Origin: an uncultured Candidatus Saccharibacteria bacterium
GTDB taxonomy: Bacteria > Patescibacteriota > Minisyncoccia > Phycocordibacterales > PALSA-1337
Direction of reading: 5' to 3'
DNA: 36,012 bases
NCBI GenBank assembly: GCA_964362725.1
Contig: CAYIFO010000001.1
Location: forward strand, 1-36,012
The first letter of the stretch is position 1, and each line of letters begins with the position of its first letter. Both the position numbers and the translations under genes were made by a program. Below, in pieces: positions 2,285-35,874 of the stretch. The notes beneath the pieces are model-generated. The model was not told the DNA's origin. It ran no database searches and saw only the letters and a list, made by a program, of their open reading frames with translations.

Positions 2285-3301
2285 ATGAATAACAACACCA
2301 CGCCGAAGGACTTTTTCCTTCACCTTGGCGCCACGGTGGCCCTTTACGCGGCCGTGGTTGCCCTTATTAACCTGGCTTTTAGTGTTATCAACTACTATTT
2401 GCCGGATCAGCTGGCTGGCTATTTCTATTCTGGCAATATTGCTTGGCCGATCTCGATGCTTATTATTCTGGTGCCCATCCTGTATGTCCTCGAATATCTG
2501 ATAATCAAAGACATTAGGAAATTGCCGGGCAAGGAATCTATCTGGATCAGACGCTGGAGAATATATTTGACGCTCTTTTTGACCGGCGCGGTTATGGTCG
2601 GCGATCTCATTGCTCTGGTTAACACATATCTAAACGGTGAAATATCCGGACGTTTTGCCTACAAGGTCTTGGCTGTTTTTGTTATCGCTGGAGTGATTTT
2701 CCTCTACTACCTTATCGAAAAGAAAAGTGGTTTGGATGGTGTCGATATTGGAACAAAGTCAAATAGCCGATTTATTGTTGCCACGATCGGTCTTGTTGTC
2801 GCTCTTATAGCTATTATCTTTGGCTTTATAGCTGTTGGTTCTCCGACCAAACAGCGCAATTTGCGTTTCGACAATCAGAGAACAAATGATCTAAGCACGA
2901 TCCAGTGGCAGATAGTCAGTCATTGGCAACAAAAAGGAAAACTACCTTCGACCCTGGATGACTTGAAGGATCCGATCAGTTATAACAAAATTCCGACTGA
3001 TCCCAAGACCAAAGATGCTTACGAATATATCCAAAAAACCGCAATGAACAGTATAACGACTATCGCTGGTACCAAACCGTCATTTGAGCTTTGCGCTACT
3101 TTTGCCCTACCAACTCCGGACAACGAGGGTCGGGGTGATTTTTACGGTGGCAATTCGTATCCGACCAGGAGCATGAGCAGTGCTTATTATGACGGCGGTA
3201 TTATTATCGAAAACGACAACTGGAAGCACGAAGCCGGCCGGACTTGTTTTACCAGAACCATTGATCCGGACAAGTACCCGGTCAATCCCAAAGGTCTATA
3301 A
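2285..3301 (+). CDS. Multi-pass membrane protein, DUF5671-like N-terminal domain with an extracytoplasmic C-terminal domain
   Basis: 338-aa ORF with about 6 hydrophobic helices in the first roughly 190 aa. The family assignment is from memory of CPR proteins and has not been searched. Confidence 0.55.
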   Translation: MNNNTTPKDFFLHLGATVALYAAVVALINLAFSVINYYLPDQLAGYFYSGNIAWPISMLIILVPILYVLEYLIIKDIRKLPGKESIWIRRWRIYLTLFLTGAVMVGDLIALVNTYLNGEISGRFAYKVLAVFVIAGVIFLYYLIEKKSGLDGVDIGTKSNSRFIVATIGLVVALIAIIFGFIAVGSPTKQRNLRFDNQRTNDLSTIQWQIVSHWQQKGKLPSTLDDLKDPISYNKIPTDPKTKDAYEYIQKTAMNSITTIAGTKPSFELCATFALPTPDNEGRGDFYGGNSYPTRSMSSAYYDGGIIIENDNWKHEAGRTCFTRTIDPDKYPVNPKGL

Positions 3302-3310
3302 AACAAAAAA

Positions 3311-4726
3311 ATGAATTTAGGAAAAAAAACCAAGATTGTCTGCACGATCGGACCGGCCACGGAAAGCCAGGAAAAGTTGGAAGCCCTTCAAAAAGCCGGC
3401 ATGAATGTGGCTAGGCTCAATTTCTCCCATGGTGATTTTGCCGAACACCAGAATCGGGTTGATAATATCCGGAAAGTTATGGAAAAAACTGGTTCAATCA
3501 TCGCCATAATCCAAGATTTGGGCGGACCAAAAATCCGCATAGGGACATTCAGGGACAAAGTTGTTAACCTGGTTAGGGGCAAGACTTTTATCCTGACCAC
3601 CGACGAGATCGAAGGTACCGAGGACAAAGTCCATATCAATTACCCCGCTTTGCCCAAAGAGGTCAAGCCGGGCATATTCATTATGCTTCAGGATGGGGCC
3701 ATGAAACTAGAGGTAGTTGAAGTCAAGGGTAATGACATAATCACCAAAGTTATTTCTGGCGGGCATTTGGCCGGCCGGAAGGGTGTCAATGTGCCTGGAG
3801 CCAATCTTTCGGTCAAGTCACTGACTGAAAAAGATCGCGAGGATGTCCAGTTTGGCATCAAAAACAAGGTGGATTTCGTAGCCCTTTCTTTTGTTCGCCA
3901 TTCGTCCGACATTAGGGAACTTCGTGAATTGTTGGACAAAGCCGGTTCCAAGGCCGGTATAATCGCCAAAATTGAGACGCCGGAGGCTCTGGCGGACATA
4001 GATGGCATAATCGAACAATCGGACGCCATAATGATAGCCAGGGGCGATCTGGCCATAGAGATACCGGCGGAAGAAGTGCCCTTAGTCCAAAAATTGATTA
4101 TTCACAAGTGTAATTCGGCGGGAAAACCGGTTATCACAGCCACGCAGATGTTGGAATCAATGGTCAAGAATCCGGTGCCGACGCGGGCCGAGGTTTCCGA
4201 TATCGCTAACGCGATCATTGATGGTACCGACGCGATCATGCTTTCCGAAGAAACGACCTTGGGTGATTTTCCGGTTGAGGCGGTCGAAGTAATGACCAAG
4301 GTCGCTTTGCGAGTTGAAAAAGAAGTATATACTCGGGACACTATAGCCGAATACGAAGAATCGCATGGTATTACCGATGTTGTTTCCCAGTCGACTGTTC
4401 GTGTTGCTCATAATATTGGAGCTTCGCTTATTGTCGCCTTGACTCGCAAAGGCAGAACTCCCCGAATGATATCTCGCTACCGTCCGGCCGAAATGGTCCT
4501 GGCTTTTTCCGATGAGAAGGCTGATCTAAACAAAATGATGCTTGTTTACGGTTGTTACCCATTCTTGGTGCCGACTTTCAAAACAACCGAGGAGATCATG
4601 GAAATAGTCCGACGGACGACCTTGGACAGTAAGTTTGTCAATAAAGGGGACAAGGTGGTTATCGTCGCCGGCATGCCTTTTGGCGGTTCCAATGAAACGA
4701 ATTTCATTTTAGTTGAGACGGTCTAG
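3311..4726 (+). CDS. pyk: Pyruvate kinase
   Basis: 471 aa with hallmark segments: KIVCTIGPA, MNVARLNFSHG, DLGGPKIR, ARGDL..EIP, ATQMLESM, MLSEETT. Confidence 0.95.
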   Translation: MNLGKKTKIVCTIGPATESQEKLEALQKAGMNVARLNFSHGDFAEHQNRVDNIRKVMEKTGSIIAIIQDLGGPKIRIGTFRDKVVNLVRGKTFILTTDEIEGTEDKVHINYPALPKEVKPGIFIMLQDGAMKLEVVEVKGNDIITKVISGGHLAGRKGVNVPGANLSVKSLTEKDREDVQFGIKNKVDFVALSFVRHSSDIRELRELLDKAGSKAGIIAKIETPEALADIDGIIEQSDAIMIARGDLAIEIPAEEVPLVQKLIIHKCNSAGKPVITATQMLESMVKNPVPTRAEVSDIANAIIDGTDAIMLSEETTLGDFPVEAVEVMTKVALRVEKEVYTRDTIAEYEESHGITDVVSQSTVRVAHNIGASLIVALTRKGRTPRMISRYRPAEMVLAFSDEKADLNKMMLVYGCYPFLVPTFKTTEEIMEIVRRTTLDSKFVNKGDKVVIVAGMPFGGSNETNFILVETV

Positions 4727-7433: not shown

Positions 7434-7820
7434 ATGTCGGCGCAAGATTATTTTAAAAGCAAAAGAATAGCGGTGGTGGGCTTGGGTCCAGAGGGTAACA
7501 TGGTCGAAGATGTCAAATTCCTGATCAAGGCAGGGGCCTTGGTCAGTGTTTACGACCTCAAGAGCGAGGCTAGGTTGAAGAGCCACCTGGTTCTTTTGCG
7601 CTCGCTGGGTCTTGCCAATCATGTCTGCGGTTCCATTCCAGCCGAGGATTTGATCGATATGGATCTCATCATCCTTTCCCATGAATATCCGCGCGATTCC
7701 TCTTTTCTCAAGGCTGTTGATGAAAAAAACAGGAGAATTGAACTCGATAAAACCAAGATTGTGGAAAAAAAAGAAAAGCCTATTCCCATCGAATACCCCG
7801 AAACACTATTTTTCAGGTGA
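7434..7820 (+). CDS. murD: UDP-N-acetylmuramoylalanine--D-glutamate ligase, N-terminal domain fragment ending at in-frame TGA 7818-7820
   Basis: Rossmann-like KRIAVVGLGPEG. The C-terminal ...ETLFFR aligns with the E. coli MurD segment (IELFCR) just before the P-loop. Confidence 0.75.
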   Translation: MSAQDYFKSKRIAVVGLGPEGNMVEDVKFLIKAGALVSVYDLKSEARLKSHLVLLRSLGLANHVCGSIPAEDLIDMDLIILSHEYPRDSSFLKAVDEKNRRIELDKTKIVEKKEKPIPIEYPETLFFR

Positions 7821-7829
7821 TCGCCTCCG

Positions 7830-8801
7830 GTGACGGTTATCGGGATAATGGGCCAGTGCGGTAAAAGCACGATCATCTCGATGCTCTCTCCGATGCTCGA
7901 GGTGGTTTGCTCCAAGACTGACAATCAGGGTTTTTTTGTTATCGATCCCGAGTCAGATAAAGGAATCATATCCAATTTGCGCAAAGTCAGGAGCGGTGAC
8001 ATCGTCCTCATGCGCCTACTTGGTCAGACGATGAAGGAACTTCATAGTATTCACATTAGTCCCCAGGTGGCAGTTTTCGCTTCGGAGCCGGCCAGAGAGG
8101 CTTACCATGATTCGCCTTTCGAGATTCTCAACTATCAGACATATAATAATTTTATAGTGGCTTCGGATGAGGTGATTGACGCGATTCGAAGTCAAAAGGT
8201 CCAACCCAAGGCCAAGATGCTACGAACAAAAATCTCGATCGTTCCTGAAACCTGGTCATTGATTAAGATTGATGGACATGATCGACAGAATGCAGCCCTA
8301 GCTTTCCAAACTGGTAAACTTTTTCGAGTTGATGATGATCTGGCCCGAGAAGTTCTGGTCAAATGGAAACCACTCAAAGGTCGTTTGGAGATGGTAAAAA
8401 AAGTCAGGGGAGTGGAGTATTACAATGACACGGCCTCAATCTGCCCTCTTTCAACGGAACAAGCTATCCGAATTTCCAGGGACAGGAATGTTATTCTGAT
8501 TTTCGGCGGGACGCGTAGCAGTCATGATTACAAGAATTTGTATTCTTTGTTGCCGGAATATGTGAAAATGGTCATTCTTCTGCCGGGTAGCGGAACGATC
8601 CATGAACGTCAGACTATCACCAAACTCAAAGATCTGAAAAGCATATCGGTTCCCTCGATCGAGGAGGCGGTTCTTCTGGCGGCCGAAAATGCCGGTAAAA
8701 ACGATAGGGTGGTCTTCAGTCCGGGCTTTGGAGCCAATGGTTTGGATAATTCAAGGAAGGAAAGAGGAGATAGGTTTGTAAAGGCCGTGCGGGGTCTTTA
8801 G
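7830..8801 (+). CDS. murD: MurD central and C-terminal domains, in the same frame as 7434..7820
   Basis: Begins VTVIGIMGQCGKST, the Mur ligase P-loop. Later Mur ligase segments follow (GRLE, YYNDTASICP). 7830-7434 is divisible by 3. Confidence 0.8.
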   Translation: MTVIGIMGQCGKSTIISMLSPMLEVVCSKTDNQGFFVIDPESDKGIISNLRKVRSGDIVLMRLLGQTMKELHSIHISPQVAVFASEPAREAYHDSPFEILNYQTYNNFIVASDEVIDAIRSQKVQPKAKMLRTKISIVPETWSLIKIDGHDRQNAALAFQTGKLFRVDDDLAREVLVKWKPLKGRLEMVKKVRGVEYYNDTASICPLSTEQAIRISRDRNVILIFGGTRSSHDYKNLYSLLPEYVKMVILLPGSGTIHERQTITKLKDLKSISVPSIEEAVLLAAENAGKNDRVVFSPGFGANGLDNSRKERGDRFVKAVRGL

Positions 8802-8820
8802 GGATGTGTCACATCCCTAA
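8798..8820. repeat. 23-nt perfect palindrome TTAGGGATGTG-T-CACATCCCTAA
   Basis: It contains the murD stop codon TAG (8799-8801) and, on the other strand, the stop codon of the PLP gene (CTA 8817-8819). The GGGATGTGTCACATCCC core recurs at 19735-19751, and a degenerate copy lies at 28251-28266. Confidence 0.85.
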
Positions 8821-12211: not shown

Positions 12212-12240
12212 TCTTGGAGATGTCCAACCTCTCCAGCATC

Positions 12241-14121: not shown

Positions 14122-14316
14122 AGAACTTGGTGAGTAATGTCTGTTTTGAGGCACGGAAAATTTTCTGCAGAAAATTTTCCTAATCCTCGGCGATTTTTGT
14201 GCCCTTCTTCGCCAAGGCTACGAAGGACACCTACTAGTTGGCCCTCCGTAGCTTTAGCGTAGGAGGCTCAAAAATCGCCTGCGGAGCCTCTCAACAGACA
14301 TTACTCACCAAGTTCT
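14122..14316. repeat. Composite palindromic element A: 24-bp closing stem, internal hairpins, and a nested roughly 65-nt insert
   Basis: Arms 14122-14145 and 14293-14316 are perfectly complementary. Inside is the 26-nt perfect palindrome GGAAAATTTTCTGCAGAAAATTTTCC (14155-14180). A 55-nt block and a 25-nt block are nearly identical to element C at 34784-34915. Confidence 0.85.
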
Positions 14317-15085
14317 AAAACCTTAGTCTTCTGATTTCCGTTTTACTTTTTTGAGCTCTTTGGACGAGTAAATCAACAGATTGATCATTACCTTCAGTCC
14401 AGCGTTGGGCGGTAATCGGTTGATTGATATCAGTGATTTCTATAGCACCTTGTCGGACTCCGGTGTTATAAAGACCGTCAGCGGGATAGGCGATGGAATG
14501 AGAGTAATGGATTTTGGCCGGAATCCCATTCAAGTAATCGACTTGATGAATAATCAAGATATGATCGCGGATCTTTTCCAAGCCACCATTGGTCATAGTT
14601 ATGATATCTCCAGGTCGAACCTGGGCAGAAGAGATTGTCTGGCTGTTTGAGTCATGAGCGAAGGTGGCAACATTGCAGTTTTCGGCCGGACGGAAAGAAC
14701 AGCGAATTTTACCAAGTAAGCCCGTACACTCGGGGAAGTTAAGATGTTTTTTTATAGAGTCATTGTTTGTGCTGTAACAGTGAGCGTTCAAGATATGATA
14801 AACAAAACCAGAACATTCAATGCCGAGATTGTTGTCAGTCATTATCTTTTTGAGATCATGATCGGTTAAGAGTTCCCTATTGATACGATTTTTGAGCAAA
14901 ATAGTTTCGACTTCGATCGCAATCTCTTCCGGGCTACCTTTGCCAATAAAAGCTCGTAGGGCCGCTCTGGATCCAGTTTTTTTGTTATTGAAATAGGGAA
15001 CAGAGCAAACGGCTTTGCCGATCTTGAAATTAAGATATTGGTTTATGACAGCCAAAGCTTGGTTAGAAAGATGTTTTTGTTCCAT
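14315..15085 (-). CDS. NlpC/P60-superfamily (papain-like Cys peptidase/amidase)-like protein
   Basis: A candidate catalytic Cys lies in GIECSGFVYHIL and a candidate His in PGDIITM....DHILIIHQV. The assignment rests on motifs only. Confidence 0.45.
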   Translation of the reverse strand: MEQKHLSNQALAVINQYLNFKIGKAVCSVPYFNNKKTGSRAALRAFIGKGSPEEIAIEVETILLKNRINRELLTDHDLKKIMTDNNLGIECSGFVYHILNAHCYSTNNDSIKKHLNFPECTGLLGKIRCSFRPAENCNVATFAHDSNSQTISSAQVRPGDIITMTNGGLEKIRDHILIIHQVDYLNGIPAKIHYSHSIAYPADGLYNTGVRQGAIEITDINQPITAQRWTEGNDQSVDLLVQRAQKSKTEIRRLRF

Positions 15086-16434: not shown

Positions 16435-16562
16435 AGCCGTAATCACAGGAATCATTCTTTGTGGCGCGCTTTGACTGCATAATACTTCTGCCTAAAGAAG
16501 AACAGTTATCTGGTTAGGCCGCTGGCAATGCGCCACAAAGAATGATTCCTGTGATTACGGCT
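16435..16562. repeat. Element B: 33-bp perfect inverted repeat with a 62-nt spacer
   Basis: AGCCGTAATCACAGGAATCATTCTTTGTGGCGC (16435-16467) has its exact reverse complement at 16530-16562. It lies between the divergent ATP-grasp and rsmI genes. Confidence 0.9.
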
Positions 16563-16603
16563 CCGCATTTGGCCAAGTAACATTGTTGTGTTACTGTATT
16601 TTC

Positions 16604-17344
16604 ATGACCACTTTTTCCGTGATCGGCACTCCTATCGGCAATCTCGAAGATATCACTCTGCGAGCTCTTAAGGTCCTGGCTGCAGCTGATCTTGTTCTTT
16701 GTGAAGATACCCGGACAACCAGAAAATTGCTGGAAAAATATGATATCAAGACCAAGACTCTCTCTTATCACGTGCACAGCAATCAAAATCGTTCAAAAGA
16801 GATTATTACTCTTCTCAAAGAAGGCAAAAATTTAGCCCTAGTTTCCGATGCGGGTACGCCTGGTATATCGGATCCTGGCATCGAATTGGTCGGGCAAATT
16901 AGAAGAGAATTGGAGGCAGAAATAAAAGACGGTTCGATTAAAATCGAAGTCATACCGGGACCTTCCGCTCTGACCGCTGCTCTTTCCATAGCCGGAGTTT
17001 CCGCCAGTCAATTTACTTTTTTGGGATTTTTGCCTCATAAGAAAGGTCGGGAAACTTTATTCAAGGAAATTGCTTTTTCAAAAAGGACAATGGTTTTTTA
17101 CGAATCAAGTCACCGGATAATGAAGACACTTGATTCATTGAATATACACAACAATGGTTCGGATAGCCTTACTTCAAAGAAAGTGACGGTTTGTCGTGAA
17201 TTGACTAAAATCTATGAAGAAGTGGTGAGCGGGAGTGCTTTGGTGGTTAAGGAATACTTTGAAAAAAATAGTGATAAAGTAAGAGGGGAGTTTGTGGTCA
17301 TTGTCGAGGCCTTTCTTCGCCAAGGCTACGAAGGGCAAGCCTGA
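16604..17344 (+). CDS. rsmI: 16S rRNA (cytidine1402-2'-O)-methyltransferase
   Basis: FSVIGTPIGNLEDITLRAL..L..ADLVLCEDTR.T.KLL is the RsmI signature. The start was trimmed to ATG 16604. The last roughly 10 codons and the stop lie in a repeat motif. Confidence 0.88.
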   Translation: MTTFSVIGTPIGNLEDITLRALKVLAAADLVLCEDTRTTRKLLEKYDIKTKTLSYHVHSNQNRSKEIITLLKEGKNLALVSDAGTPGISDPGIELVGQIRRELEAEIKDGSIKIEVIPGPSALTAALSIAGVSASQFTFLGFLPHKKGRETLFKEIAFSKRTMVFYESSHRIMKTLDSLNIHNNGSDSLTSKKVTVCRELTKIYEEVVSGSALVVKEYFEKNSDKVRGEFVVIVEAFLRQGYEGQA

Positions 17345-19432: not shown

Positions 19433-19688
19433 AGAAGTTATGGCAAATAAAGTTCGTAGGAATGTGTCGAGTTCTAACGGAAAGCCTAATGATGAATTCA
19501 CTCGAAGGAGTGTTTTTATTCCAGTTGGTTTCCATGTTGGTCGAGCCCAGTTTTCTGGCGTAGGTACTAACGAGAAATTGATACATCTGGAAATGCCGGA
19601 TCGTGGTTTACCAGAATCGGCATATGGTAGTTATCCGGGCTCAACACATTGTTAACTTTTGTCTGGTGCCTGGGAAGCGCCACAAACG

Positions 19689-19718
19689 GAACCCTTGCTT
19701 GAATGTGAGGGTTTTTTT
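19689..19718 (+). terminator. Rho-independent terminator
   Basis: AACCCT(19690-19695)-tgcttgaatgtg-AGGGTT(19708-19713) running into T7 (19712-19718). Confidence 0.7.
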
Positions 19719-19731
19719 ATTTGAAAGCAAA

Positions 19732-19754
19732 TCTGGGATGTGTCACATCCCAGA
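19732..19754. repeat. 23-nt perfect palindrome TCTGGGATGTG-T-CACATCCCAGA
   Basis: Same 17-nt core as 8801-8817. The flanking palindromic bases differ but stay complementary. Confidence 0.85.
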
Positions 19755-19757
19755 GAG

Positions 19758-19766
19758 TGATATAAT
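19758..19766 (+). promoter_or_regulatory. Extended -10 element TGaTATAAT, 10 nt upstream of ATG 19777
   Basis: Exact TGnTATAAT match. No SD-like sequence lies before the start. Confidence 0.5.
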
Positions 19767-19776
19767 TCTGGTAAGT

Positions 19777-21669
19777 ATGGACGAAGATCGCATAACATAT
19801 TTTGGCGAGACGGACGCTCGCAATAAGAAGGTCAAATTTGGCATCAAAGCCAAAGACCGAACTCGCCATGTCTATGTCATCGGCAAGACGGGCATGGGCA
19901 AGTCAACCATGCTCGAGAATATGGCCGTTCAAGACATTACCAGCGGAGAGGGGATGTGCTTCATCGACCCTCATGGTAAGACGGCCGATCTTCTCCTCGA
20001 ATATGTGCCCAAAGAGCGCATTCGTGATGTTATCGTCATAGCGCCTTTCGACGTCGAATATCCAATATCTTTCAATGTTCTTGAAAGCGTCGATTCGCAA
20101 AAGAGACATCTGGTCGTCTCCGGCCTCATGAGTACATTCAAGAAAATCTGGGAAGATGCTTGGTCAGCTCGGATGGAATATATTTTGACCAACACTCTCC
20201 TGGCTCTGCTCGAAGCGCCCGGTTCGACTTTGCTCGGGGTCAATCGGATGCTTTCTGACAAGGAATATCGCAAAGAGATTATTTCTCATGTCCAGGATCC
20301 CTCGGTCAAAAATTTCTGGGTCAAGGAATTCGCCAATTACACCGAAAGAATGGCGGCCGAAGCGGTGCCGGCTATCCAGAACAAGGTCGGTCAGTTTACC
20401 GCGAACCCCCTGATCCGGAACATGATCGGTCAGCCCCATTCTTCTTTCGATTTTCGTGAAGCCATGGATCACCGGAAGATCATCATCATCAACCTTTCCA
20501 AAGGACGGATCGGCGATGAGAATATGAAACTTTTGGGTGGGCTTCTGGTCACAAAGATCTACCTGGCGGCTATGTCCAGGGCCGATGTGCCGGATCGGAC
20601 AGCCAAGCTATTGCCCAATTTCTATCTTTTTGTCGACGAATTTCAAAATTTTGCTAACGCTTCATTCGCCGATATTCTTTCCGAGGCTCGGAAATACAAA
20701 CTCAATTTGACGATAGCCCATCAGTATATCGAACAGATGGACGAGATAGTCCGGCCGGCTGTTTTCGGCAACGTAGGCACGATGATCGCTTTCCGGGTGG
20801 GGGCGACCGATGCCGAGGAATTGGAAAAAGAATTTGCGCCGGTTTTCGTGCTTGAAGATCTGGTCAATCTTGGTTTCGCCCAGATTTATTTGAAACTAAT
20901 GATCGATGGTCTTTCTTCCCAACCTTTCTCGGCCACGACTCTGTCGCCAATTCCGCACCCCGACCAGTCCTATGTCCAGGAAATAATCTCCGCTTCTCGC
21001 GAGCAATTTTCCAGACCGAGAGCCGTTGTTGAGGAAGCCATTCTCAAGTTCCATGAACCTGTGCCAAAGAAGTCGGCAATCCCTCCCTCTACGACAATAG
21101 CGAATAATTCTGCGGTTGTGGGAAGTATTCCAAATGTGCCAAGTGTTTCATTGGTTAAAACTGCTACAAATAGTGTTTCTGCAAATCCCAAGCCGTTTAT
21201 CGTTTCGATGCCGTCGCCGATTGCTTCTATGCCCATTCATCAGGAGACCAATCCTGTACCAGTCGCAAAGTCTGCGTCTGTTCAAGTTAAAACCGCTTCT
21301 TACTCATCCAAGCTGACTGCAAGTATTCCAAAATCTTCCAGCGAGCCGACTTCTGGTCGGGATATTAATAAGCCAATTTCTTTGAGTTCTTTGACTCCGA
21401 CATTGGCCAAAATCTTTCCCAGAAAAGACATGAAAACGCCGACTACCCAAAATGTTAATAGTTTGAAAAATGCTCTTCAAACTCTTCTTAATAAGAATCC
21501 TAAACTGACTCCAGTATCCGGAAAGGTTTTACCGACTGCATCCAAAGCTTCTGAAATAAAACCGACAATTCCAGATAATTCAGCCGTCAAAATACCTTCG
21601 GAAACGGCTGTTTCAACGCCTCAAGAAGTGCCCGAAGAGGTTCTCAAAAACGTCTTGAAAGTTGACTGA
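19777..21669 (+). CDS. VirD4/TraD/TraG-like (type IV coupling protein-like) P-loop ATPase with a long Ser/Pro/Thr/Lys-rich C-terminal tail
   Basis: Walker A is VIGKTGMGKST and Walker B is LFVDEFQNF, followed by KYKLNLTIAHQY and GTMIAFRVG. The last roughly 200 aa are low-complexity. The start was trimmed to ATG 19777. Confidence 0.7.
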   Translation: MDEDRITYFGETDARNKKVKFGIKAKDRTRHVYVIGKTGMGKSTMLENMAVQDITSGEGMCFIDPHGKTADLLLEYVPKERIRDVIVIAPFDVEYPISFNVLESVDSQKRHLVVSGLMSTFKKIWEDAWSARMEYILTNTLLALLEAPGSTLLGVNRMLSDKEYRKEIISHVQDPSVKNFWVKEFANYTERMAAEAVPAIQNKVGQFTANPLIRNMIGQPHSSFDFREAMDHRKIIIINLSKGRIGDENMKLLGGLLVTKIYLAAMSRADVPDRTAKLLPNFYLFVDEFQNFANASFADILSEARKYKLNLTIAHQYIEQMDEIVRPAVFGNVGTMIAFRVGATDAEELEKEFAPVFVLEDLVNLGFAQIYLKLMIDGLSSQPFSATTLSPIPHPDQSYVQEIISASREQFSRPRAVVEEAILKFHEPVPKKSAIPPSTTIANNSAVVGSIPNVPSVSLVKTATNSVSANPKPFIVSMPSPIASMPIHQETNPVPVAKSASVQVKTASYSSKLTASIPKSSSEPTSGRDINKPISLSSLTPTLAKIFPRKDMKTPTTQNVNSLKNALQTLLNKNPKLTPVSGKVLPTASKASEIKPTIPDNSAVKIPSETAVSTPQEVPEEVLKNVLKVD

Positions 21670-23976: not shown

Positions 23977-25149
23977 ATGAAAAATAAAAGTTTACTCATG
24001 ATTTCAACCGATCGCGCCATCTTTGACGAGAAGAGCGATGTTCGCGCTCGTCAGATCGAATATGCTAAGGAATGGGAGGAAGTTCACATTGTTATTTTTT
24101 GTAAAGAAAATTCAGCACTCCTTGGCAGTCGTTCCTTCTCAACCACGATCGGCTCGGCTCGAAGAACCGAAAACTCGCCGAGCCGTCTCTTCTCGCGCCG
24201 CCGATTGGAGTATGATAATTCGCAATCCAGCGGCGCTCCGAAAGGGTTTCGAAAGAACGACTGCCAAGGAGTGCTTATCTCTGAAAATTGTTGGCTTTAT
24301 TCAACAGAATCTTTCTCAAAATTTCTTTTTCCTTTTGATGCTGTTCGTATAGGAAAGAATATTGTTGAAAATAATAAAATAACCAACATTACTTGCCAGG
24401 ATTCTTCTTTGACTGCTTATGCGGGTGTCTCTCTCAAAAGAAAATATAAGATCCCGTTGGAGATTCAAATTCATGAGGATTTGGGTAGTCCCAACTACGC
24501 TTACAATCTGACGAATAAAATTCGTTTATTTTTGGCCAATCATTACATTCCCAAGGCCGATAATGTTAGAGTCGTTTCTTTCCGGATAAAAAAATATGTT
24601 GAGGAATTGTTGGAGAAAAAGAGATTGAACAAAGATTCGGGTAAACCGGTCATTGAAACTCGCCCCATTTCGGTCGATCTTGAAAAAATAAGGAATTCGC
24701 CGACGATCGTCGATCTTTATCAGAAATACCGCCAGTTTGATAAAATAGTCCTCATGGCTTCACGCCTGGAAAAAGAAAAGAATGTCGAATTGGCAATCAA
24801 AGCCTGGAAAAAGGTCAATGAATCTTTTCCAAAGGCCGGTTTGCTTATTGTCGGGCGAGGTTCCAAAAGTGTCGCTCTACAGAGCCTTCCCGCTAGGGTA
24901 ACCCTAGCGGGATCGATAATCTTTGAAGATTGGGTTCCTAAACCAACCCTTTTTTCCTATTACAAGACGGCCGATCTTTTCTTGAACACTTCCTTGTTTG
25001 AAGGCTATGGTCTGACTTTGGTCGAAGCAGAAGCCGCTGGCTGTCCGATAGTTTCAACCGATGTTGGCATTGCCGGGGAAGTTGGGGCGAATATTACGAG
25101 CTTTGAACCAGATGATGTGGCTAATAAGATTATTCAGTCGCTCAAGTAG
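23977..25149 (+). CDS. Glycosyltransferase family 4 carrying an in-frame 59-codon palindromic-element insertion
   Basis: C-terminal motif: NTSLFEGYGLTLVEAEAAGCPIVSTDVG. Residues encoded by about 24113-24289 are Ser/Arg-rich and coincide with an inverted-repeat element. Confidence 0.75.
   Translation: MKNKSLLMISTDRAIFDEKSDVRARQIEYAKEWEEVHIVIFCKENSALLGSRSFSTTIGSARRTENSPSRLFSRRRLEYDNSQSSGAPKGFRKNDCQGVLISENCWLYSTESFSKFLFPFDAVRIGKNIVENNKITNITCQDSSLTAYAGVSLKRKYKIPLEIQIHEDLGSPNYAYNLTNKIRLFLANHYIPKADNVRVVSFRIKKYVEELLEKKRLNKDSGKPVIETRPISVDLEKIRNSPTIVDLYQKYRQFDKIVLMASRLEKEKNVELAIKAWKKVNESFPKAGLLIVGRGSKSVALQSLPARVTLAGSIIFEDWVPKPTLFSYYKTADLFLNTSLFEGYGLTLVEAEAAGCPIVSTDVGIAGEVGANITSFEPDDVANKIIQSLK
24113..24282. 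mobile_element. MITE-like multi-hairpin palindromic element inserted in-frame in a glycosyltransferase CDS
   Basis: 21-bp perfect terminal inverted repeats at 24114-24134 and 24255-24275. Three internal hairpins. Flanked by the direct repeat GAAAATT at 24106-24112 and 24283-24289. Element plus one repeat copy is 177 bp, or 59 codons. Confidence 0.55.
24888..24912. repeat. 25-nt perfect palindrome inside the glycosyltransferase CDS
   Basis: TCCCGCTAGGGT-A-ACCCTAGCGGGA, encoding ..LPARVTLAGS.. Confidence 0.85.
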
Positions 25150-26693: not shown

Positions 26694-28258
26694 AACTATC
26701 ATTTGTCATTCCTTGCTATAACGAAAAGAACACGATTCGGGAGTTACTCTCCCGAGTTTTGTCTTTGGACATAGCGCCCTGGAAAAAAGAAATAATCGTG
26801 GTTGACGACGCCTCGAGCGATGGAACATCTGATGTTCTCAATGAATTCAAGAATAAAATCAAACTAATCAATCTCAAAAAGAATAGCGGTAAAGGCACGG
26901 CAGTTCTCTCTGGTCTCGCGGAAGTGACCGGTGACTACATTGTCATTCAAGACGCTGATCTGGAATACAATCCAAGTGATATTTGCCCCATGTTGGCGAT
27001 TATTGAAAAAGAGCCTAGTCTGGTGATTTACGGTTCGAGAAATATTCATCACGAGAAAAGAAGCGGCTTTATTTTTCAGAGAATGGGCGTCTGGGCCATT
27101 ACTTACTTGATTAATGTGTTCTATAACCAGAAATTAACCGATGTTTGGACCTGCTACAAAGTCTTTCCGGTTGCGGCCAAAAAGCATTTTGTGCCGGGGC
27201 GCTATGAAGCGGAATTGCTTTTTACGACGGCTATGGTGCGGAATGGTTATCGGATCGAAGAGGTATCTATCTCTCACAAGCCTCGTAATGCCAGCCAGGG
27301 CAAGAAAATACGTTACAGGGACGGTTTTAGGGCCATTGGGGCCATTCTGGCCGATAAACTGGCCCATCTGAAGAAGCCAGAAATACGACTGGCGGCCGAC
27401 CATTCGAAGATAATCTGTTGTCCATTTTGTCAAAGTGAGCTTTCAAGAAAAGCCAATGCCCATTTTTGCCAAACACATGGTTTGTTTGAAATAGACGAAT
27501 CTCGAAGGCCGATCCTGATAGAAAGTGAAGTCTACAAGAAAAATCAAAATCAACACGATTCCGGTATCAATTGGCTCAAGTCTTTTTTCAAGCAATTTCC
27601 CAAACTCTACTACACTATTTGGCATGTCGTCTGTCCGGTCATGATGTTGGTCAATGGTCCACGGATAGTTCTCGATCGGCTCAAAAATGGTAGCTTGATT
27701 GCCGATATTGGTTCGGGACCGGAAAGGCTCGGTCCGGAATTTATCAATGTCGATGTTTTTCCTTTTCCGGAAGTGGATATAGTGGCTGATGCCACTCGTT
27801 TACCCTTTAAGGATAATACTTTGGACGGAGCGGTTTCAGAATCAGTTTTTGAACATGTGCCGGATGCTTCTCTGGTAGCCCGGGAAATGGTTCGAGTTGT
27901 CAAACCGGGTGGCTTGATTTATGTGAGCGCGCCCTTTATACACCCTTACCATGCTTCTCCCGATGATTTTAATCGCTGGACGATAAGTGGTTTGAAACAT
28001 CTCTTTCCTGATCTGGAAATAATCGAAGCCGGGGTTCGCTCGGGTCCCTGGAGCGCTCTTCTCATGTTTCTGGCCTATTGGCTGGGCGTGATCTTTTCCT
28101 TTGGGGCCAGGGCGGTGGCGCCTTTCCTGGCTCACATGTTCATGATCATCCTGGGACCTTTCAAATATCCGGATTATTTTTTCATGAAGATACCCGGTTC
28201 GGAAGCGGTGGCGACACATCTTTATATTTTGGGGAGGAAGAGGGGTGGGAGGGTGTGA
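26690..28258 (+). CDS. Fusion protein: GT2 (DPM1/GtrB-like) + zinc-ribbon + class I SAM methyltransferase + C-terminal TM segments
   Basis: SFVIPCYNE..VVDDASSDGT..QDADLEYNP (GT2). CCPFCQSEL...HFCQTHG (Zn ribbon). DIGSGPE...LPFKDNTLDG.VSESVFEHV...VKPGG (Methyltransf_11-like). The C-terminus is hydrophobic. Confidence 0.8.
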   Translation: MKLSFVIPCYNEKNTIRELLSRVLSLDIAPWKKEIIVVDDASSDGTSDVLNEFKNKIKLINLKKNSGKGTAVLSGLAEVTGDYIVIQDADLEYNPSDICPMLAIIEKEPSLVIYGSRNIHHEKRSGFIFQRMGVWAITYLINVFYNQKLTDVWTCYKVFPVAAKKHFVPGRYEAELLFTTAMVRNGYRIEEVSISHKPRNASQGKKIRYRDGFRAIGAILADKLAHLKKPEIRLAADHSKIICCPFCQSELSRKANAHFCQTHGLFEIDESRRPILIESEVYKKNQNQHDSGINWLKSFFKQFPKLYYTIWHVVCPVMMLVNGPRIVLDRLKNGSLIADIGSGPERLGPEFINVDVFPFPEVDIVADATRLPFKDNTLDGAVSESVFEHVPDASLVAREMVRVVKPGGLIYVSAPFIHPYHASPDDFNRWTISGLKHLFPDLEIIEAGVRSGPWSALLMFLAYWLGVIFSFGARAVAPFLAHMFMIILGPFKYPDYFFMKIPGSEAVATHLYILGRKRGGRV

Positions 28259-28294
28259 CACATCCCGGAACTGAAGAGAAGAGGTCGGACCTCT
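28251..28294. repeat. Two adjacent palindromic motifs at a gene end
   Basis: GGGTGTGACACATCCC (28251-28266) is a degenerate copy of the GGGATGTGTCACATCCC motif and contains stop codon TGA 28256-28258. AGAGGTCGGACCTCT (28280-28294) is identical to 33278-33292. Confidence 0.75.
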
Positions 28295-28322
28295 CCGACA
28301 TTCTAAATCATATCTGTCAACC

Positions 28323-32229: not shown

Positions 32230-33396
32230 ATGACAAAACGGATGTTTCTCCTATTTCATGGCCGGTTTCCGGGAGAAAAAGCCGCCTCGCTTTTTACGGC
32301 CAAGAACGCCGAAGCTTTCGCCAAAGCCGGGCTCCAAGTCAAAGTTTTGGTGCCGAGACGAAAAGATGTCGAGCCCCAGACAGCTTTCGATTATTATGCG
32401 ATTTCCAAGAATTTTGAAATTGTGGAATTGCCGACTACCGACTTCTTTGCTCTGAAAATCCCCAAGCGCTTGGCTTTTCTTGTGAGCTTTATCGCATTTT
32501 CTCTGGCTTGTTTTTATTATCTGCGCCGACAATCACCTGATAAGGATGATCTTGCCTATTCAAACGAATCTTTACCTCTTTGGGCGGCTTCTTTTGCCGG
32601 TCTCAGTACTTTTTATGAAATGCATGATTTTCCCGAAAGCAAGCTCGGTCTCTTCGGATTGTTACTTAAAAGGTTTGATTGGATTTTGATTCATAACCGC
32701 TGGAAAGTCCAAGAATTCAAGAAGATTTTTCCCAAAATTAAAGCTAAGATTTTGTGCGAGCCCAATGCTGTCGATATAAAAGAATTTGATATCCAGATTT
32801 CGAAAGAAGAAGCACGAGATCGGTTGGGTCTTGATGCTGGTAATCGCGGCAAACAAATAGCCGTCTACACAGGCCATCTTTTTGGTTGGAAAGGTGTCGA
32901 TACGTTGGCTAAAGCAGCTGAAATTTTGGGCAACGATTGTTTGGTCATTTTTGTAGGCGGAACGGAAAAAGATGTTATTGCATTCAAGAAAAAATACGGA
33001 CAAGTTCCAAATATCCTGATAGTCGGTCACAAGCTACACAAAGAGATTCCGATCTGGCAAAAGGCGGCTGATGTTTTGATCTTGCCCAATACGGCCAAGG
33101 AGGCAATTTCTACCTTTTACACCTCGCCAATGAAACTCTACGAATACATGGCCAGCCGAAGGCCGATAGTGGCTTCGGATATCCCTTCGGTTCGAGAGAT
33201 TGTTGATGAAACTTGCGCTGTCCTAGTCAAGCCGGATGAGCCAGAGGTACTTGCTATTGCCATTAGATCCGTGTTAGAGAGGTCGGACCTCTCTAACACA
33301 AAACTGATCGATATGGCGATGTCGCGAGCTCATTTGCGGACTTGGGACAGAAGAGCAGATAATATTATTGCTTTTATGAAAAACAATGCTCAATAA
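32230..33396 (+). CDS. Glycosyltransferase family 4
   Basis: GHLFGWKGVDTL and SPMKLYEYMASRRPIVASDIPSVREIV. The start was trimmed to ATG 32230. Confidence 0.75.
   Translation: MTKRMFLLFHGRFPGEKAASLFTAKNAEAFAKAGLQVKVLVPRRKDVEPQTAFDYYAISKNFEIVELPTTDFFALKIPKRLAFLVSFIAFSLACFYYLRRQSPDKDDLAYSNESLPLWAASFAGLSTFYEMHDFPESKLGLFGLLLKRFDWILIHNRWKVQEFKKIFPKIKAKILCEPNAVDIKEFDIQISKEEARDRLGLDAGNRGKQIAVYTGHLFGWKGVDTLAKAAEILGNDCLVIFVGGTEKDVIAFKKKYGQVPNILIVGHKLHKEIPIWQKAADVLILPNTAKEAISTFYTSPMKLYEYMASRRPIVASDIPSVREIVDETCAVLVKPDEPEVLAIAIRSVLERSDLSNTKLIDMAMSRAHLRTWDRRADNIIAFMKNNAQ
33271..33299. repeat. 29-nt perfect palindrome inside a CDS
   Basis: GTGTTAGAGAGGTC-G-GACCTCTCTAACAC, encoding VLERSDLSNT. Its 15-nt core is identical to 28280-28294. 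Confidence 0.9.
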
Positions 33397-34783
33397 TCAA
33401 AAATTTAACACTTTTTGTCTCAATCACCGCTTGGAAATCAGTATTTTTCTTTTGGCTTTGGTTGTACGAATCGCACTTTTCGCTATCAATTTCCAGGCGG
33501 CTGGCTCTGATTTGTTGACTGCTATCCATGGTGACGATGGCTATTATGAAATCAGTCAAGGTTTGCTTTCAGGCCATGGTTTTACTGGTTCGGTCGAGGA
33601 ACCTTTTAGTCCCAATCCTTTGAGGCCACCGCTCTGGCCGGCTATGATCGCCGGATTAGTTTATATCTTTGGTTCATATTGGGCTGTGGCGATTTTTGAA
33701 CTGATTATTGCCAGTCTAGTTTCGGTTTTGGGCATGAAAATAGCTTCTGGTCTTTTTGATCGAAAACGATTGACTGTTCTGGTTGGCATATTTTTGGCTA
33801 TCGAACCGTATGGTGTTTTCCTATCGACCAATATGTATTCGGAAACGATATTCACTTTTCTTTTTCTGGCATTTTTTGTCTTTGTGATCAGGTATTGTAA
33901 GAATGCCAGTTTACGAAACGCTGCCTGGATGGCGATGTTTTTGGGACTTTCTATTTTGGCCAAGGCCACGGTCCAATATTTTCCATTTATCATTCCATTC
34001 TTCATGTTGTACATTGGCAGGAATAATCTGACGAAAAGTGTTTGGCGGAATATCTTTGTTTTCGTCCTGATTATTTTGGCTCTCCTCGGACCATGGCTTT
34101 ACCGCAATTATCGCGAATTTGGAGTTTGGGGGATGAGTGCCCAACCGGCTTTCAATCTTTTTGTTTACTTGGTACCGACGGCTTTGTCGATCGACAATGG
34201 TACCAATTTTGCCGTGGAGCTGGATAATTTTGTCTATAAAAAGGGTATTGATGTCAATTCGATCAACTTATCTAATTCTGATTATTATTCCAGCCAAGCT
34301 CTGACCGTCCTTCAAGATCACAAGCTGGCTCTGGTCAAATCGTTTGGAACGACTATGGTGACATTTTTCACCCATGATGGAATGTTATCGGTCCTGGCCC
34401 ATACTGGTGTAACTTTTCCCAATAATTTGAGTCAGCCAGCTCTTTCTCTGCTTCTCAATGATCCCGGCAAACTGGTTGATATAATTGCCGGTTATATTGC
34501 CTCGCCGGCTGTCCTCATCCTTGTTATTCGATTGGTCTGGATCTGCATCACATCCCTCTTCTTTATCGGGATTTGGAAAGCTTGGTCAAAAAAGGAAATC
34601 AATTTGCCGGCTTTAACGGCTCTTCTTATCATTCTTTATTTTGCTTTGACTACAACTATAAACGGTCTGGGGGTCAATGCTAGGTTCAGAACGCCAGTAA
34701 ATATTTTTATTTTTTCCTTTGCTCTTTATGGATTGTTTAGCTTTGGGTTTGTTAGAAAATTGAAAAGGAATCAGGAGCAATAA
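33386..34783 (+). CDS. GT-C fold membrane glycosyltransferase (ArnT/PMT, GT39/GT83-like)
   Basis: 465 aa with 10 or more TM helices. An early extracytoplasmic-loop DD motif (HGDDGYYE) is typical of GT-C enzymes. Confidence 0.55.
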   Translation: MLNNQKFNTFCLNHRLEISIFLLALVVRIALFAINFQAAGSDLLTAIHGDDGYYEISQGLLSGHGFTGSVEEPFSPNPLRPPLWPAMIAGLVYIFGSYWAVAIFELIIASLVSVLGMKIASGLFDRKRLTVLVGIFLAIEPYGVFLSTNMYSETIFTFLFLAFFVFVIRYCKNASLRNAAWMAMFLGLSILAKATVQYFPFIIPFFMLYIGRNNLTKSVWRNIFVFVLIILALLGPWLYRNYREFGVWGMSAQPAFNLFVYLVPTALSIDNGTNFAVELDNFVYKKGIDVNSINLSNSDYYSSQALTVLQDHKLALVKSFGTTMVTFFTHDGMLSVLAHTGVTFPNNLSQPALSLLLNDPGKLVDIIAGYIASPAVLILVIRLVWICITSLFFIGIWKAWSKKEINLPALTALLIILYFALTTTINGLGVNARFRTPVNIFIFSFALYGLFSFGFVRKLKRNQEQ

Positions 34784-34915
34784 CTCAGATTGGTAAGTAA
34801 TGTCTTTTTCGAGGCACGGAAAATTTTCTGCAGAAAATTTCCCTAATCCTCGGCGATTTTTGTGCTCAAAAATCGCCTGCGGAGCCTCTAAAAAAACATT
34901 ACTTACCAATCTGAG
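34784..34915. repeat. Palindromic element C, the un-nested relative of element A
   Basis: 20-bp perfect arms at 34784-34803 and 34896-34915, extendable to about 36 bp with 2 mismatches. The core is 54/55 and 25/25 identical to element A. It starts immediately after stop codon TAA 34781-34783. Confidence 0.88.
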
Positions 34916-34932
34916 TGCGCAAGCTTTTCTTT

Positions 34933-35874
34933 TTAAAAATGAACCATCGAGCAGTACTTATTTTGAAAATAGCCGTTTTTGTCTTTGTAATACTCCCAAT
35001 CCATTTTTTCGCTTTTCATGACAATATGCGGGATATTGCCGAACCAAGAGGCTAGGTGGCCGAAGCTGGAATCGGAGCCGATGATAGTATCTGTTTTCGA
35101 AAGAAGAAACAAATCGACAACGGCATGTTCTTTTGAAATCATGATGTTTAGTCCTTCGAACAATTCTTTTTCGATCGAACCATCAGACATTATGAGAAAT
35201 AAAATTTCTTGAATCTTCAAGCCTTTGTTTGCTATGTATTCATCGATTATGGTCCTGATTCTTTTTTGTTCAATGAAATATTTTCCGCCTTTCCAAGTCT
35301 TGTAATCGCCTTGACGAATATGGAGACCAATCACCTTTTGATACTTCTGCCTGATCTTGGACATAATCCCGTTCATTTTTTCCGCAAGCTGTGAATTGGG
35401 AGTGAAAACTTTGAGAAGAGTGGTCCGGTATTTTTCCAAACCGAGGGGGTTGCGGAAAAGCCAGCCGGCCATATAAACATCGTTGTGTGAGAATAAGTCG
35501 CTTCTGCCTGACTTGAAATCATTTGACTGCACGGTTGGGGGCAGATAGGTGACCTTATTGGAAAGATTTTCTGTGGAAAGAATTTTTTTTCTTTTGGTAA
35601 GTTCGACTGACCGAGTATACAGGGAATATAAGGCTCGCCAAAGTTTTTTCCAAATATTTTGCTTGCGACCGCGGTAGTTCGTAAACATTTTTGCCATGAG
35701 CCTAACCGCGAGGCCTTCATCTTTGAGGAAATTGAACAGACCATGGTATTCGTAAAATGACGGGTTTCTGAGTCGGACTTTTTCCTCCAGACTCCAGGCA
35801 TATATACTCATATAATTCCAGAGCTGATTGGCCAGCTCGCCCCCGCCGTGTTTGAAAATGATGATCTTTTTCAT
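34933..35874 (-). CDS. GT11-like glycosyltransferase (alpha-1,2-fucosyltransferase-like)
   Basis: GGGELANQLWNY parallels GGLGNQ.FQY. HIRQGDY parallels HVRRGDY. IIGSDSSFGHLASWF parallels the NSTFSWWAAW region. Confidence 0.5.
   Translation of the reverse strand: MKKIIIFKHGGGELANQLWNYMSIYAWSLEEKVRLRNPSFYEYHGLFNFLKDEGLAVRLMAKMFTNYRGRKQNIWKKLWRALYSLYTRSVELTKRKKILSTENLSNKVTYLPPTVQSNDFKSGRSDLFSHNDVYMAGWLFRNPLGLEKYRTTLLKVFTPNSQLAEKMNGIMSKIRQKYQKVIGLHIRQGDYKTWKGGKYFIEQKRIRTIIDEYIANKGLKIQEILFLIMSDGSIEKELFEGLNIMISKEHAVVDLFLLSKTDTIIGSDSSFGHLASWFGNIPHIVMKSEKMDWEYYKDKNGYFQNKYCSMVHF

Follow-up and report, generated by a model that had tools for sequence, protein, structure and literature searches.

Systems of repetitive extragenic palindromic (REP) sequences and REP-associated tyrosine transposases (RAYTs) have so far been studied mainly in Proteobacteria, and the tiny genomes of the Candidate Phyla Radiation (CPR; Patescibacteria) are generally regarded as containing few repeats and little mobile DNA. 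Here, we describe two palindromic elements, A and C, found in a 36,012-nt stretch of an uncultured Candidatus Saccharibacteria bacterium (contig CAYIFO010000001.1 of assembly GCA_964362725.1; the whole stretch is referred to below as the window), and compare them with REP sequences and with other small palindromic elements of bacteria. Results of our analysis indicate that A and C are members of an undescribed, non-coding family of Y-shaped palindromic repeats of groundwater and lake CPR bacteria (Paceibacteria). The family probably has its hosts among CPR bacteria of the Paceibacteria, and elements of Saccharibacteria are probably related to it.

The described elements that fit best are REPINs, inverted doublets of REP sequences that fold as hairpins and in which compensatory changes are common (PMC3116915). 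A RAYT dimer has been suggested to recognise an alternative, clover fold, which has two small hairpins (PMC3116915). The recognition determinants of the RAYT proteins TnpAREP are stem irregularities in the case of group 2 and loop bases in the case of group 3 (PMC8266576), and the RAYT genes typically occur in a single genomic context (PMC8266576; PMC5581495). On balance, it is probable that the family described here represents a non-autonomous element similar to REPINs and to bacterial interspersed mosaic elements (BIMEs), which is mobilised via folded single-stranded DNA by a transposase of the Y1/HUH type.

Results

A repeat search of the window showed that A (14122-14316) and C (34783-34916) share two segments, one of 76 nt (95% identity) and one of 46 nt (91%), with a single difference in the 55-nt core and an identical 25-nt 3' segment. 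Either strand of both elements folds as a three-way junction composed of a closing stem (P1) and two hairpins (P2 and P3). With RNA parameters, the folding energies are -114 (A) and -70 kcal/mol (C) for the plus strand and -118 and -78 kcal/mol for the minus strand, the z-scores range from -12 to -15, and DNA energy parameters give the same Y fold. The P1 arms, 31 nt in A (14122-14152 and 14286-14316) and 33 nt in C (34783-34815 and 34884-34916), are 94% complementary within each element. The arms of A differ from those of C, each fits its own partner, and complementary changes on both arms are present at seven positions.

The P2 hairpin of A (14155-14180, plus strand, as are all element coordinates given here) is a perfect 26-nt palindrome centred on CTGCAG, namely, an 11-bp stem with a TGCA loop (GGAAAATTTTC-TGCA-GAAAATTTTCC). 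Its counterpart in C (34818-34843) has one substitution, which makes an A.C mismatch on the plus strand and a G.U pair on the minus strand. A 21-mer of P2 occurs in the window only in A and C, with a chance expectation of 0. The P3 hairpin, with the GGCGATTTTTG/CAAAAATCGCC stem in both elements, is an irregular helix (TCC-TC-GGC/GCC-TGC-GGA) with a TC/TGC internal loop. In C it is continuous (34847-34883; TCC-T-CGGCGATTTTTG-TGCT-CAAAAATCGCC-T-G-C-GGA), with AC at the junction of P1 and P2 and TAA between P2 and P3. In A its 5' half (14184-14202; TCC-T-CGGCGATTTTTG and the loop bases TGC) and its 3' half (14268-14285; T-CAAAAATCGCC-TGC-GGA) are separated by a nested 65-nt palindromic insert (14203-14267) placed exactly inside the TGCT loop. 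This insert, which alone accounts for the larger size of A, is missing from C and from every other copy described below and is a different repeat, outside of the family core. Its half-unit CTTCGCCAAGGCTACGAAGG recurs in the window at 17315-17334. The recurrence (17309-17337) lies between GTCGAG and CTCGAC within the last codons of a TP_methylase (RsmI-like) open reading frame (ORF; 16583-17344), and, together with the insert of A, it gives the impression of another small repeat family, one directed to the loops of hairpins and the ends of genes.

The final two bases of A overlap the TAG codon (CTA at 14315-14317) of the minus-strand ORF 14315-15085, encoding a 256-aa NlpC/P60-like protein. Element C begins on the last base of the TAA codon of the PMT_2/GT-C ORF 33386-34783, or on the base after it, and ends 16 nt before the stop codon of the minus-strand ORF 34933-35874. 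The closing stems, the CTGCAG palindrome, the shared 11-bp hairpin, the cores identical at 54/55 and 25/25 positions, the compensated arms and the contact of both elements with stop codons had been pointed out in a sequence-only reading of the window, and each of them was recovered in our analysis.

That reading would have been undermined if A and C were the only two copies or if further copies had shown no structure-preserving variation. Six further distinct copies were found, all in Paceibacteria-like contigs and representing at least five populations, and P1, P2 and P3 all show compensatory changes. The scan of species-representative genomes with the P2 21-mer returned 17 loci, among which locus L016, of an uncultured Paceibacteria-like metagenome-assembled genome (MAG), holds a clear homologue directly 3' of the ligA stop codon. 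The scan of metagenome contigs with a junction pattern returned ten loci, eight of them real: L018 and L023 carry the same copy as L016, L019 and L022 carry one copy and L020 another (all three from the 0.1-µm fraction of well H43 of the Hainich aquifer), and L025, L026 and L027 carry three more. The distinct copies are thus eight: A, C, L016, L019, L020, L025, L026 and L027.

The same three-way-junction fold is present in all eight copies, with a unit size of 110-150 bp and arms of 22-40 bp. Distant copies diverge in sequence in each of the three helices, with the pairing preserved (e.g., GGACGAAACTC/GAGTTTCGTCC in P2 of L025), while the TGCA and TGCT loops and the CTGCAG centre (8/8 copies) are fixed. 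The junction strings CCTAATCCTCGG and CCTGCGGAG belonged to the search pattern, and their constancy in the copies found with it is not independent evidence; both are also identical in L016, which was recovered with P2 alone. In the 105-column alignment of the copies, 92.2% of the cells of the paired columns are paired, as compared to 40-57% when the partners are slid by one to three columns. Changes on both sides concern 24 of the 44 pairs, and none of 500 shuffles reached any of the measures. A covariance model built from this alignment scores all copies at 93-115 bits in the forward direction. The reverse strands score 45-51 bits because the element is pseudo-symmetric: P2 and P3 are mutually similar in inverted orientation, with 17 of 26 bases in common in either orientation.

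An unfiltered search of the window with the covariance model revealed no further copies, and a viral collection gave no matches to the junction pattern, the P2 21-mer or the transposase protein described below. Open translations of the core, concatenated and compared with a set of 5.8 billion proteins in a search for miscalled ORFs over copies, scored nothing, and the element has no coding capacity. No Rfam 15 family matches it at the gathering threshold, which in the window and 11 loci is passed only by tRNAs; in the E-value mode A and C gave just far sub-threshold matches to hairpin models of miRNA precursors. The searchable literature yielded nothing relevant on palindromic repeats, miniature inverted-repeat transposable elements (MITEs) or structured RNAs of CPR bacteria, which agrees with the sequence-only reading, whose author knew of no described equivalent in this group.

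The genomic contexts of the copies are diverse. Element A lies between the NlpC-like and GT4 genes, and C between the GT-C gene and a convergent ORF of no assigned family. The other copies are flanked by ligA and gatC (L016), a Y1 transposase-like gene and secG (L019), the start of a gene encoding a T2SSE ATPase and tsaE (L020), the start of recA (L025), genes of an M10 peptidase and an oxidoreductase (L026), and rnpA and dnaA (L027). All eight copies are extragenic or overlap just the last codons of genes. The contact with stop codons seen in A and C had been taken as a property of the family; it applies to three or four of the eight copies, the others lying in divergent promoter regions or 36-65 nt from genes. 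With respect to the neighbouring transcription, the plus orientation of the element is sense in one case, antisense in three and convergent in one, and three copies occupy divergent regions. A sigma-70 promoter was found neither at A nor at C.

Two orthologous spacers of relatives are empty. The ligA-gatC spacer has 175 nt in the lineage with the element (L016, L029 and L030) and 30 nt in L035 and L036, whose ligA is 71% identical and ends at the same stop position; in L032 this spacer is of unrelated sequence. The NlpC-GT4 spacer has 229 nt in the window and 81 nt in L038, which has no element there. Therefore, the element is inserted DNA. In L037, from Hainich well H51, where the neighbouring genes are 57% identical, the NlpC-GT4 spacer carries a different palindrome with 28-bp perfect arms, whose core comprises the same irregular helix (GCC-GA-GGA/TCC-GCA-GGC) flipped end for end. 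This spacer may be either an insertion hot spot or the site of an ancient resident element whose arms have been turned over while remaining paired.

The positions of A, C and L016 at gene ends, with C between convergent genes, could bring to mind ordinary bidirectional terminators or attenuators that resemble each other by chance, or, for the window itself, a simple local duplication. We consider this explanation extremely unlikely. A T-run (U-tract) follows P1 on neither strand in any copy, no terminator-like site was found at A or C, and some copies lie in divergent promoter regions. Additionally, the same core is present in unrelated loci of several distant populations, and relatives lack the element at the same spacers.

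The window originates from Hainich well H43, and the closest NlpC homologue found elsewhere is only 58% identical, whereas the cores of C and L016 are about 95% identical. Identity of this degree requires either that the element has spread horizontally or that it is very strongly constrained. Contigs identical to the window extend its contig by only about 0.8 kb, and L019 and L020 come from the same samples as these contigs and have the same low coverage. They also bear the short palindromes of the window GAGAGGTCGGACCTCTC and GGGATGTG(T/A)CACAT, as well as P1 arms that are homologues of the arms of A and C; the tetranucleotide composition does not discriminate whether L019 and L020 share a genome. 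The shared samples, coverage, short palindromes and homologous arms indicate that A, C, L019 and L020 are probably at least four copies in one population. Among them the cores differ by one to three bases and the arms at as many as 12 of 33 positions, or about a third, with three to nine compensated vs. three to six uncompensated positions per pair. Between populations the arms are unrelated, and the interior is about 95% conserved.

Several contigs stop inside or beside element copies (the ends of L028 and L031 and the start of L025). We considered contig ends at elements as a sign of a high copy number and rejected it, as long inverted repeats alone break de Bruijn assemblies.

With its 110-150 bp and long terminal inverted repeats (TIRs), its scatter between genes, the orthologous sites that lack it and the presence of several copies in a population, the element could pass for a classical MITE of the Correia/NEMIS type or one similar to Rickettsia palindromic elements (RPEs), the arms of which would be TIRs bound by the DDE transposase of a parent insertion sequence (IS). 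However, inspection of the flanks of all eight copies revealed no target-site duplication, no direct repeat, no common dinucleotide and no common flanking motif (the left flanks are GCTA, AATA, TGGT, AATA, TAAC, GTGG, CTTG and TGCG). Variable, compensated arms around a conserved interior are the opposite of what recognition through TIRs predicts, and a DDE transposase was found in none of the loci examined. An origin of this kind is thus quite unlikely. Arm-only palindromes, looked for as a sign that the core inserts into pre-existing palindromes, were found neither in the window nor in the loci.

The helices of the eight copies comprise 401 Watson-Crick pairs, five G.T pairs on the plus strand, eight on the minus strand and ten other mismatches, most of which form a semi-conserved internal loop 5-7 bp from the junction. 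A helix selected solely as RNA on one strand normally tolerates many G.U pairs on that strand. As the wobbles are rare and occur on both strands, the pattern is compatible with a constraint acting either on DNA or on both strands, and this Watson-Crick symmetry points to a constraint at the DNA level.

The alternative is that the element is a structured RNA, probably of the minus strand, serving either as an independent small RNA or as a cis-acting mRNA element (a 3'-end stabiliser, an RNase III site or a protein-binding site). The strong covariation of all three helices, next to loops and junctions that do not vary, would suit such a role, as would the very stable folds, which are better for the minus strand in six of the eight copies, and the position of several copies immediately 3' of stop codons. 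The internal loop of P3, which on the minus strand reads GA/GCA, is purine-rich and resembles an RNA motif, a weak hint for the minus strand as RNA; P2 contains on that strand a G.U pair in four of the eight copies, and the NlpC-GT4 spacers of the window and of L037 both have the GA/GCA version on the sense strand. On the other hand, the orientation of the copies is mixed, promoter and terminator consensus sequences and an Rfam match are missing, and the element is multi-copy, non-syntenic and absent from the orthologous spacers of relatives. Moreover, wobbles make up about 3% of pairs and are split between the strands, unlike in most selected RNA helices. A role as RNA is therefore possible, though doubtful.

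A gene encoding a protein similar to Y1/HUH transposases is located immediately beside the element copy of L019. This minus-strand ORF (3059-3649, 196 aa) has its 3' end inside the 3' arm of the element, with an overlap of 26 nt. Its product matches PF01797 (Y1_Tnp, the IS200-like family) at 25.6 bits, with the Pfam gathering cut-off of 23, and its only NCBIfam match is NF047646, REP-associated tyrosine transposase (E 9e-7). The protein contains the motifs YHVYNRG, DHFHL (the HUH motif) and YIHLNP and matches annotated plasmid transposases with E-values down to 1e-11. In four assemblies the gene is found always in the order groES, gene, element and secG, i.e., in one genomic context. None of the other loci examined contains another Y1 gene.

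On its other side, 56 nt upstream of its start, the L019 gene is preceded by the short palindrome CGTCGGAGAGGTCCGACCTCTCCGACACG, which belongs to another repeat family of this population. The members of that family have a conserved apex, GAGGTC-S-GACCTC, with variable complementary flanks, and their copies are placed at gene ends. They occur in the window at 12218-12238, 28280-28300 and 33278-33298, in L019 at 3705-3745, in L020 at 2932 and, as a tandem pair, in L037 at 8136-8179.

Loci L001, L002, L003, L008 and L011, from MAGs of Saccharibacteria or Parcubacteria, came from the 21-mer scan apparently as chance matches, and their P2 was imposed by the search. They share, however, a conserved element of their own, GGTCAGGAATAAATTTTCTGCAGAAAATTTTTCAYGACC-CTGSCTCGCC-hairpin, with a TGCT loop, a TC/TCC internal loop, a short closing stem and a second hairpin that covaries. 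In L002 (4793-5780) three such hairpin units are interleaved with two tRNA genes within about 600 nt. The covariance model of the A/C family scores these loci at only 14-23 bits. The second hairpin with the same loop and internal loop and the Y shape make a distant kinship to the A/C family likely, though not proven. In L001 (3600-4030), a near-identical terminator-like segment (GTCGCACAGCAAAAAAGCCCCAAA) flanks a hairpin unit on both sides.

In the case of L016, the arms of the element include the native last codon and stop codon of ligA (GAATGA paired to TCATTC). Several other long-arm palindromes, with cores different from that of A and C, are also present in these genomes, which is a hint of some general process by which perfect arms arise or are preserved. 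Possibly, the family represents a new class of hairpin transposons, whose enzyme recognises only the central double hairpin and whose arms are made anew whenever the element transposes, through self-templated fold-back synthesis, or homogenised by repair that uses the hairpin as its template. Self-templated or homogenised arms would explain why the arms are always Watson-Crick paired and yet diverge fast, why those of L016 reach into the native ligA stop codon, and why unrelated long-arm palindromes with conserved apices coexist. In a variant of this explanation, the irregular helix CC-GA-GG/CC-GCA-GG would be a portable protein-binding module recruited by the host. We regard such a class as rather unlikely.

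Several of these other palindromes are worth recording. The 162-nt (54-codon, in-frame) segment 24114-24275, located in the glycosyltransferase ORF 23977-25149, is a Y-shaped palindrome with 31-nt arms and two inner hairpins. Its deletion keeps the reading frame, and an N-terminal GT4 domain then appears weakly (E 0.007); it is a possible RPE-like in-frame insertion. The palindrome 16435-16562, with 33-bp perfect arms separated by 62 nt, lies in the divergent ATP-grasp/TP_methylase spacer, which in L038 has 54 nt and in L037 contains an unrelated palindrome with 48-nt arms (1592-1699). Thus, the long palindromes present in a given spacer differ between related lineages. Upstream of the genes of tRNA-Leu (446-529) and tRNA-Ile (632-705) there is a palindrome (95-179) whose 34-nt arms are 82% complementary and separated by 17 nt. 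The 17-nt palindrome GGGATGTGTCACATCCC is present in the window at 8801-8817, 19735-19751 and 28250-28266 (twice exact) and in L020 at 1991-2007, and two of its window copies sit on stop codons. In the genome of L016 there are several other long palindromes (L029 7332-7528, 14118-14281 and 17487-17661), one of them with 29-bp perfect arms, and two copies of a CCCCCTTT-CAAAGGGGGATCCACCAACGTA palindrome family. It thus seems that these Paceibacteria genomes generally contain long-arm palindromes.

Two observations concern the coding content of the window. A murD-like gene is apparently split into 7434-7820 and 7830-8801, with the MurD N-terminal domain in one part and the Mur ligase C domain in the other; the gene may be truly split, or the cause may be a frameshift or a sequencing error. 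The ORF 19603-21669 encodes a 688-aa protein with ATPase domains of VirD4/TraG/TrwB-type coupling proteins and is placed among cell-envelope genes.

Discussion

The features of the A/C family are best accommodated by mobility of the REPIN type. In such a scenario, the unit would fold into the Y form when its DNA becomes single-stranded during replication or repair, and both hairpins would then be bound by a dimeric Y1/HUH tyrosine transposase, either a RAYT or an IS200-like enzyme, encoded once per genome. The enzyme encoded at L019 is a candidate for this role, with P2 and P3 as its putative binding sites. By cutting and rejoining the single strand, the enzyme would copy the unit, or move it, into other intergenic regions. 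The spread would continue just for copies whose core is intact, which we propose as the reason why the core is nearly invariant; the arms would need just to pair and could drift with compensated changes. As a side effect, a transcribed copy, in either orientation, would introduce a Y hairpin of -70 to -118 kcal/mol into mRNA, which could block 3' exonucleases or act as an RNase III site.

The similarities to REPIN/RAYT systems are numerous. The unit is an inverted doublet of extragenic palindromic units that can form a long hairpin or small hairpins, it shows compensatory hairpin changes, it has no coding capacity and generates no target duplication, and one copy has a Y1/HUH-like gene immediately beside it. 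The irregular stem of P3 and the perfect stem and fixed loop of P2 correspond to the substrate styles of TnpAREP groups 2 and 3, respectively. The differences include the host, a CPR bacterium, for which we found no report of RAYTs or REP sequences, and the very divergent transposase.

Several results weigh against this reading. The centre of the element is conserved and its ends are variable, whereas REPINs have invariant ends around a variable spacer. No copy contains the GTAG-type tetranucleotide (GTAG/CTAC) expected at the feet of the hairpins; on the plus strand P2 is preceded by GAGGCAC and P3 by CCTAAT, and on the minus strand the corresponding sequences are GGATTA and GAGGC. The known copy numbers are small, with two copies in the 36 kb of the window and apparently one exact P2 21-mer site in the genome of the L016 species, a handful as compared to the hundreds of REPINs. 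The score of the L019 protein with NF047646 (28.8 bits) is far below the cut-off of 80 bits, and the protein has no match among the solved TnpAREP structures at E<=1. Its gene accompanies the element at one locus, in four assemblies representing one population, and there is, by our estimate, a small chance that the two are neighbours by accident. The palindrome on the other flank of this gene (GAGAGGTC-S-GACCTCTC) could be the real substrate of the enzyme, and the GAGGTC-S-GACCTC family may be its real or second substrate. The palindrome of L037 in the NlpC-GT4 spacer could be a sign that such elements are long resident and serve the host, rather than being mobile, and the minus-strand G.U pair in P2 of four copies is a weak hint of selection on an RNA strand. 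Since the GTAG signature is missing and the link to the enzyme concerns one locus, we refrain from calling the family a proven REPtron, i.e., a REP system complete with its transposase; most likely, it works like one.

Other described elements share fewer of these features. The resemblance to REP/BIME sequences proposed in the sequence-only reading stood up, in the form of REPINs, while that to Correia or RPE elements gave way to the variable arms and the lack of target duplications. Elements of the IS200/IS605 family and their gene-less derivatives, palindrome-associated transposable elements (PATEs), also rely on a Y1/HUH enzyme and on subterminal hairpins of single-stranded DNA and generate no target duplication, and the L019 unit, comprising a hairpin, the 591-bp gene and the Y element, is of IS200-like size (about 790 bp). 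However, the ends of IS200/IS605 elements are not inverted repeats and their insertion takes place beside a fixed tetra- or pentanucleotide, whereas the family described here has long complementary arms and no common flanking motif, and the L019 gene occurs in one context only. Correia/NEMIS elements of Neisseria, ERIC, RUP and Nezha are likewise intergenic palindromes of 100-160 bp, the transcribed hairpins of which can affect mRNA processing, but they are characterised by conserved TIRs, duplication of TA or another target and an origin from DDE-type elements, none of which was found here. RPEs of Rickettsia are palindromes that can lie at or inside gene ends; they are defined, however, by in-frame insertion in coding sequences, unlike the eight copies described here, which are intergenic or reach just the last codons.

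If the proposed mobility is true, REP/RAYT-type systems would be extended to the CPR radiation. In an element with a conserved centre and free arms, recognition and mere pairing are tasks of different parts, which may be useful in studies on the choice of substrates by RAYTs and on their movement. The family is also of significance for genome annotation and binning, as its palindromes coincide with the ends of metagenome contigs and add hairpins at gene ends, and some related ones are placed inside ORFs.

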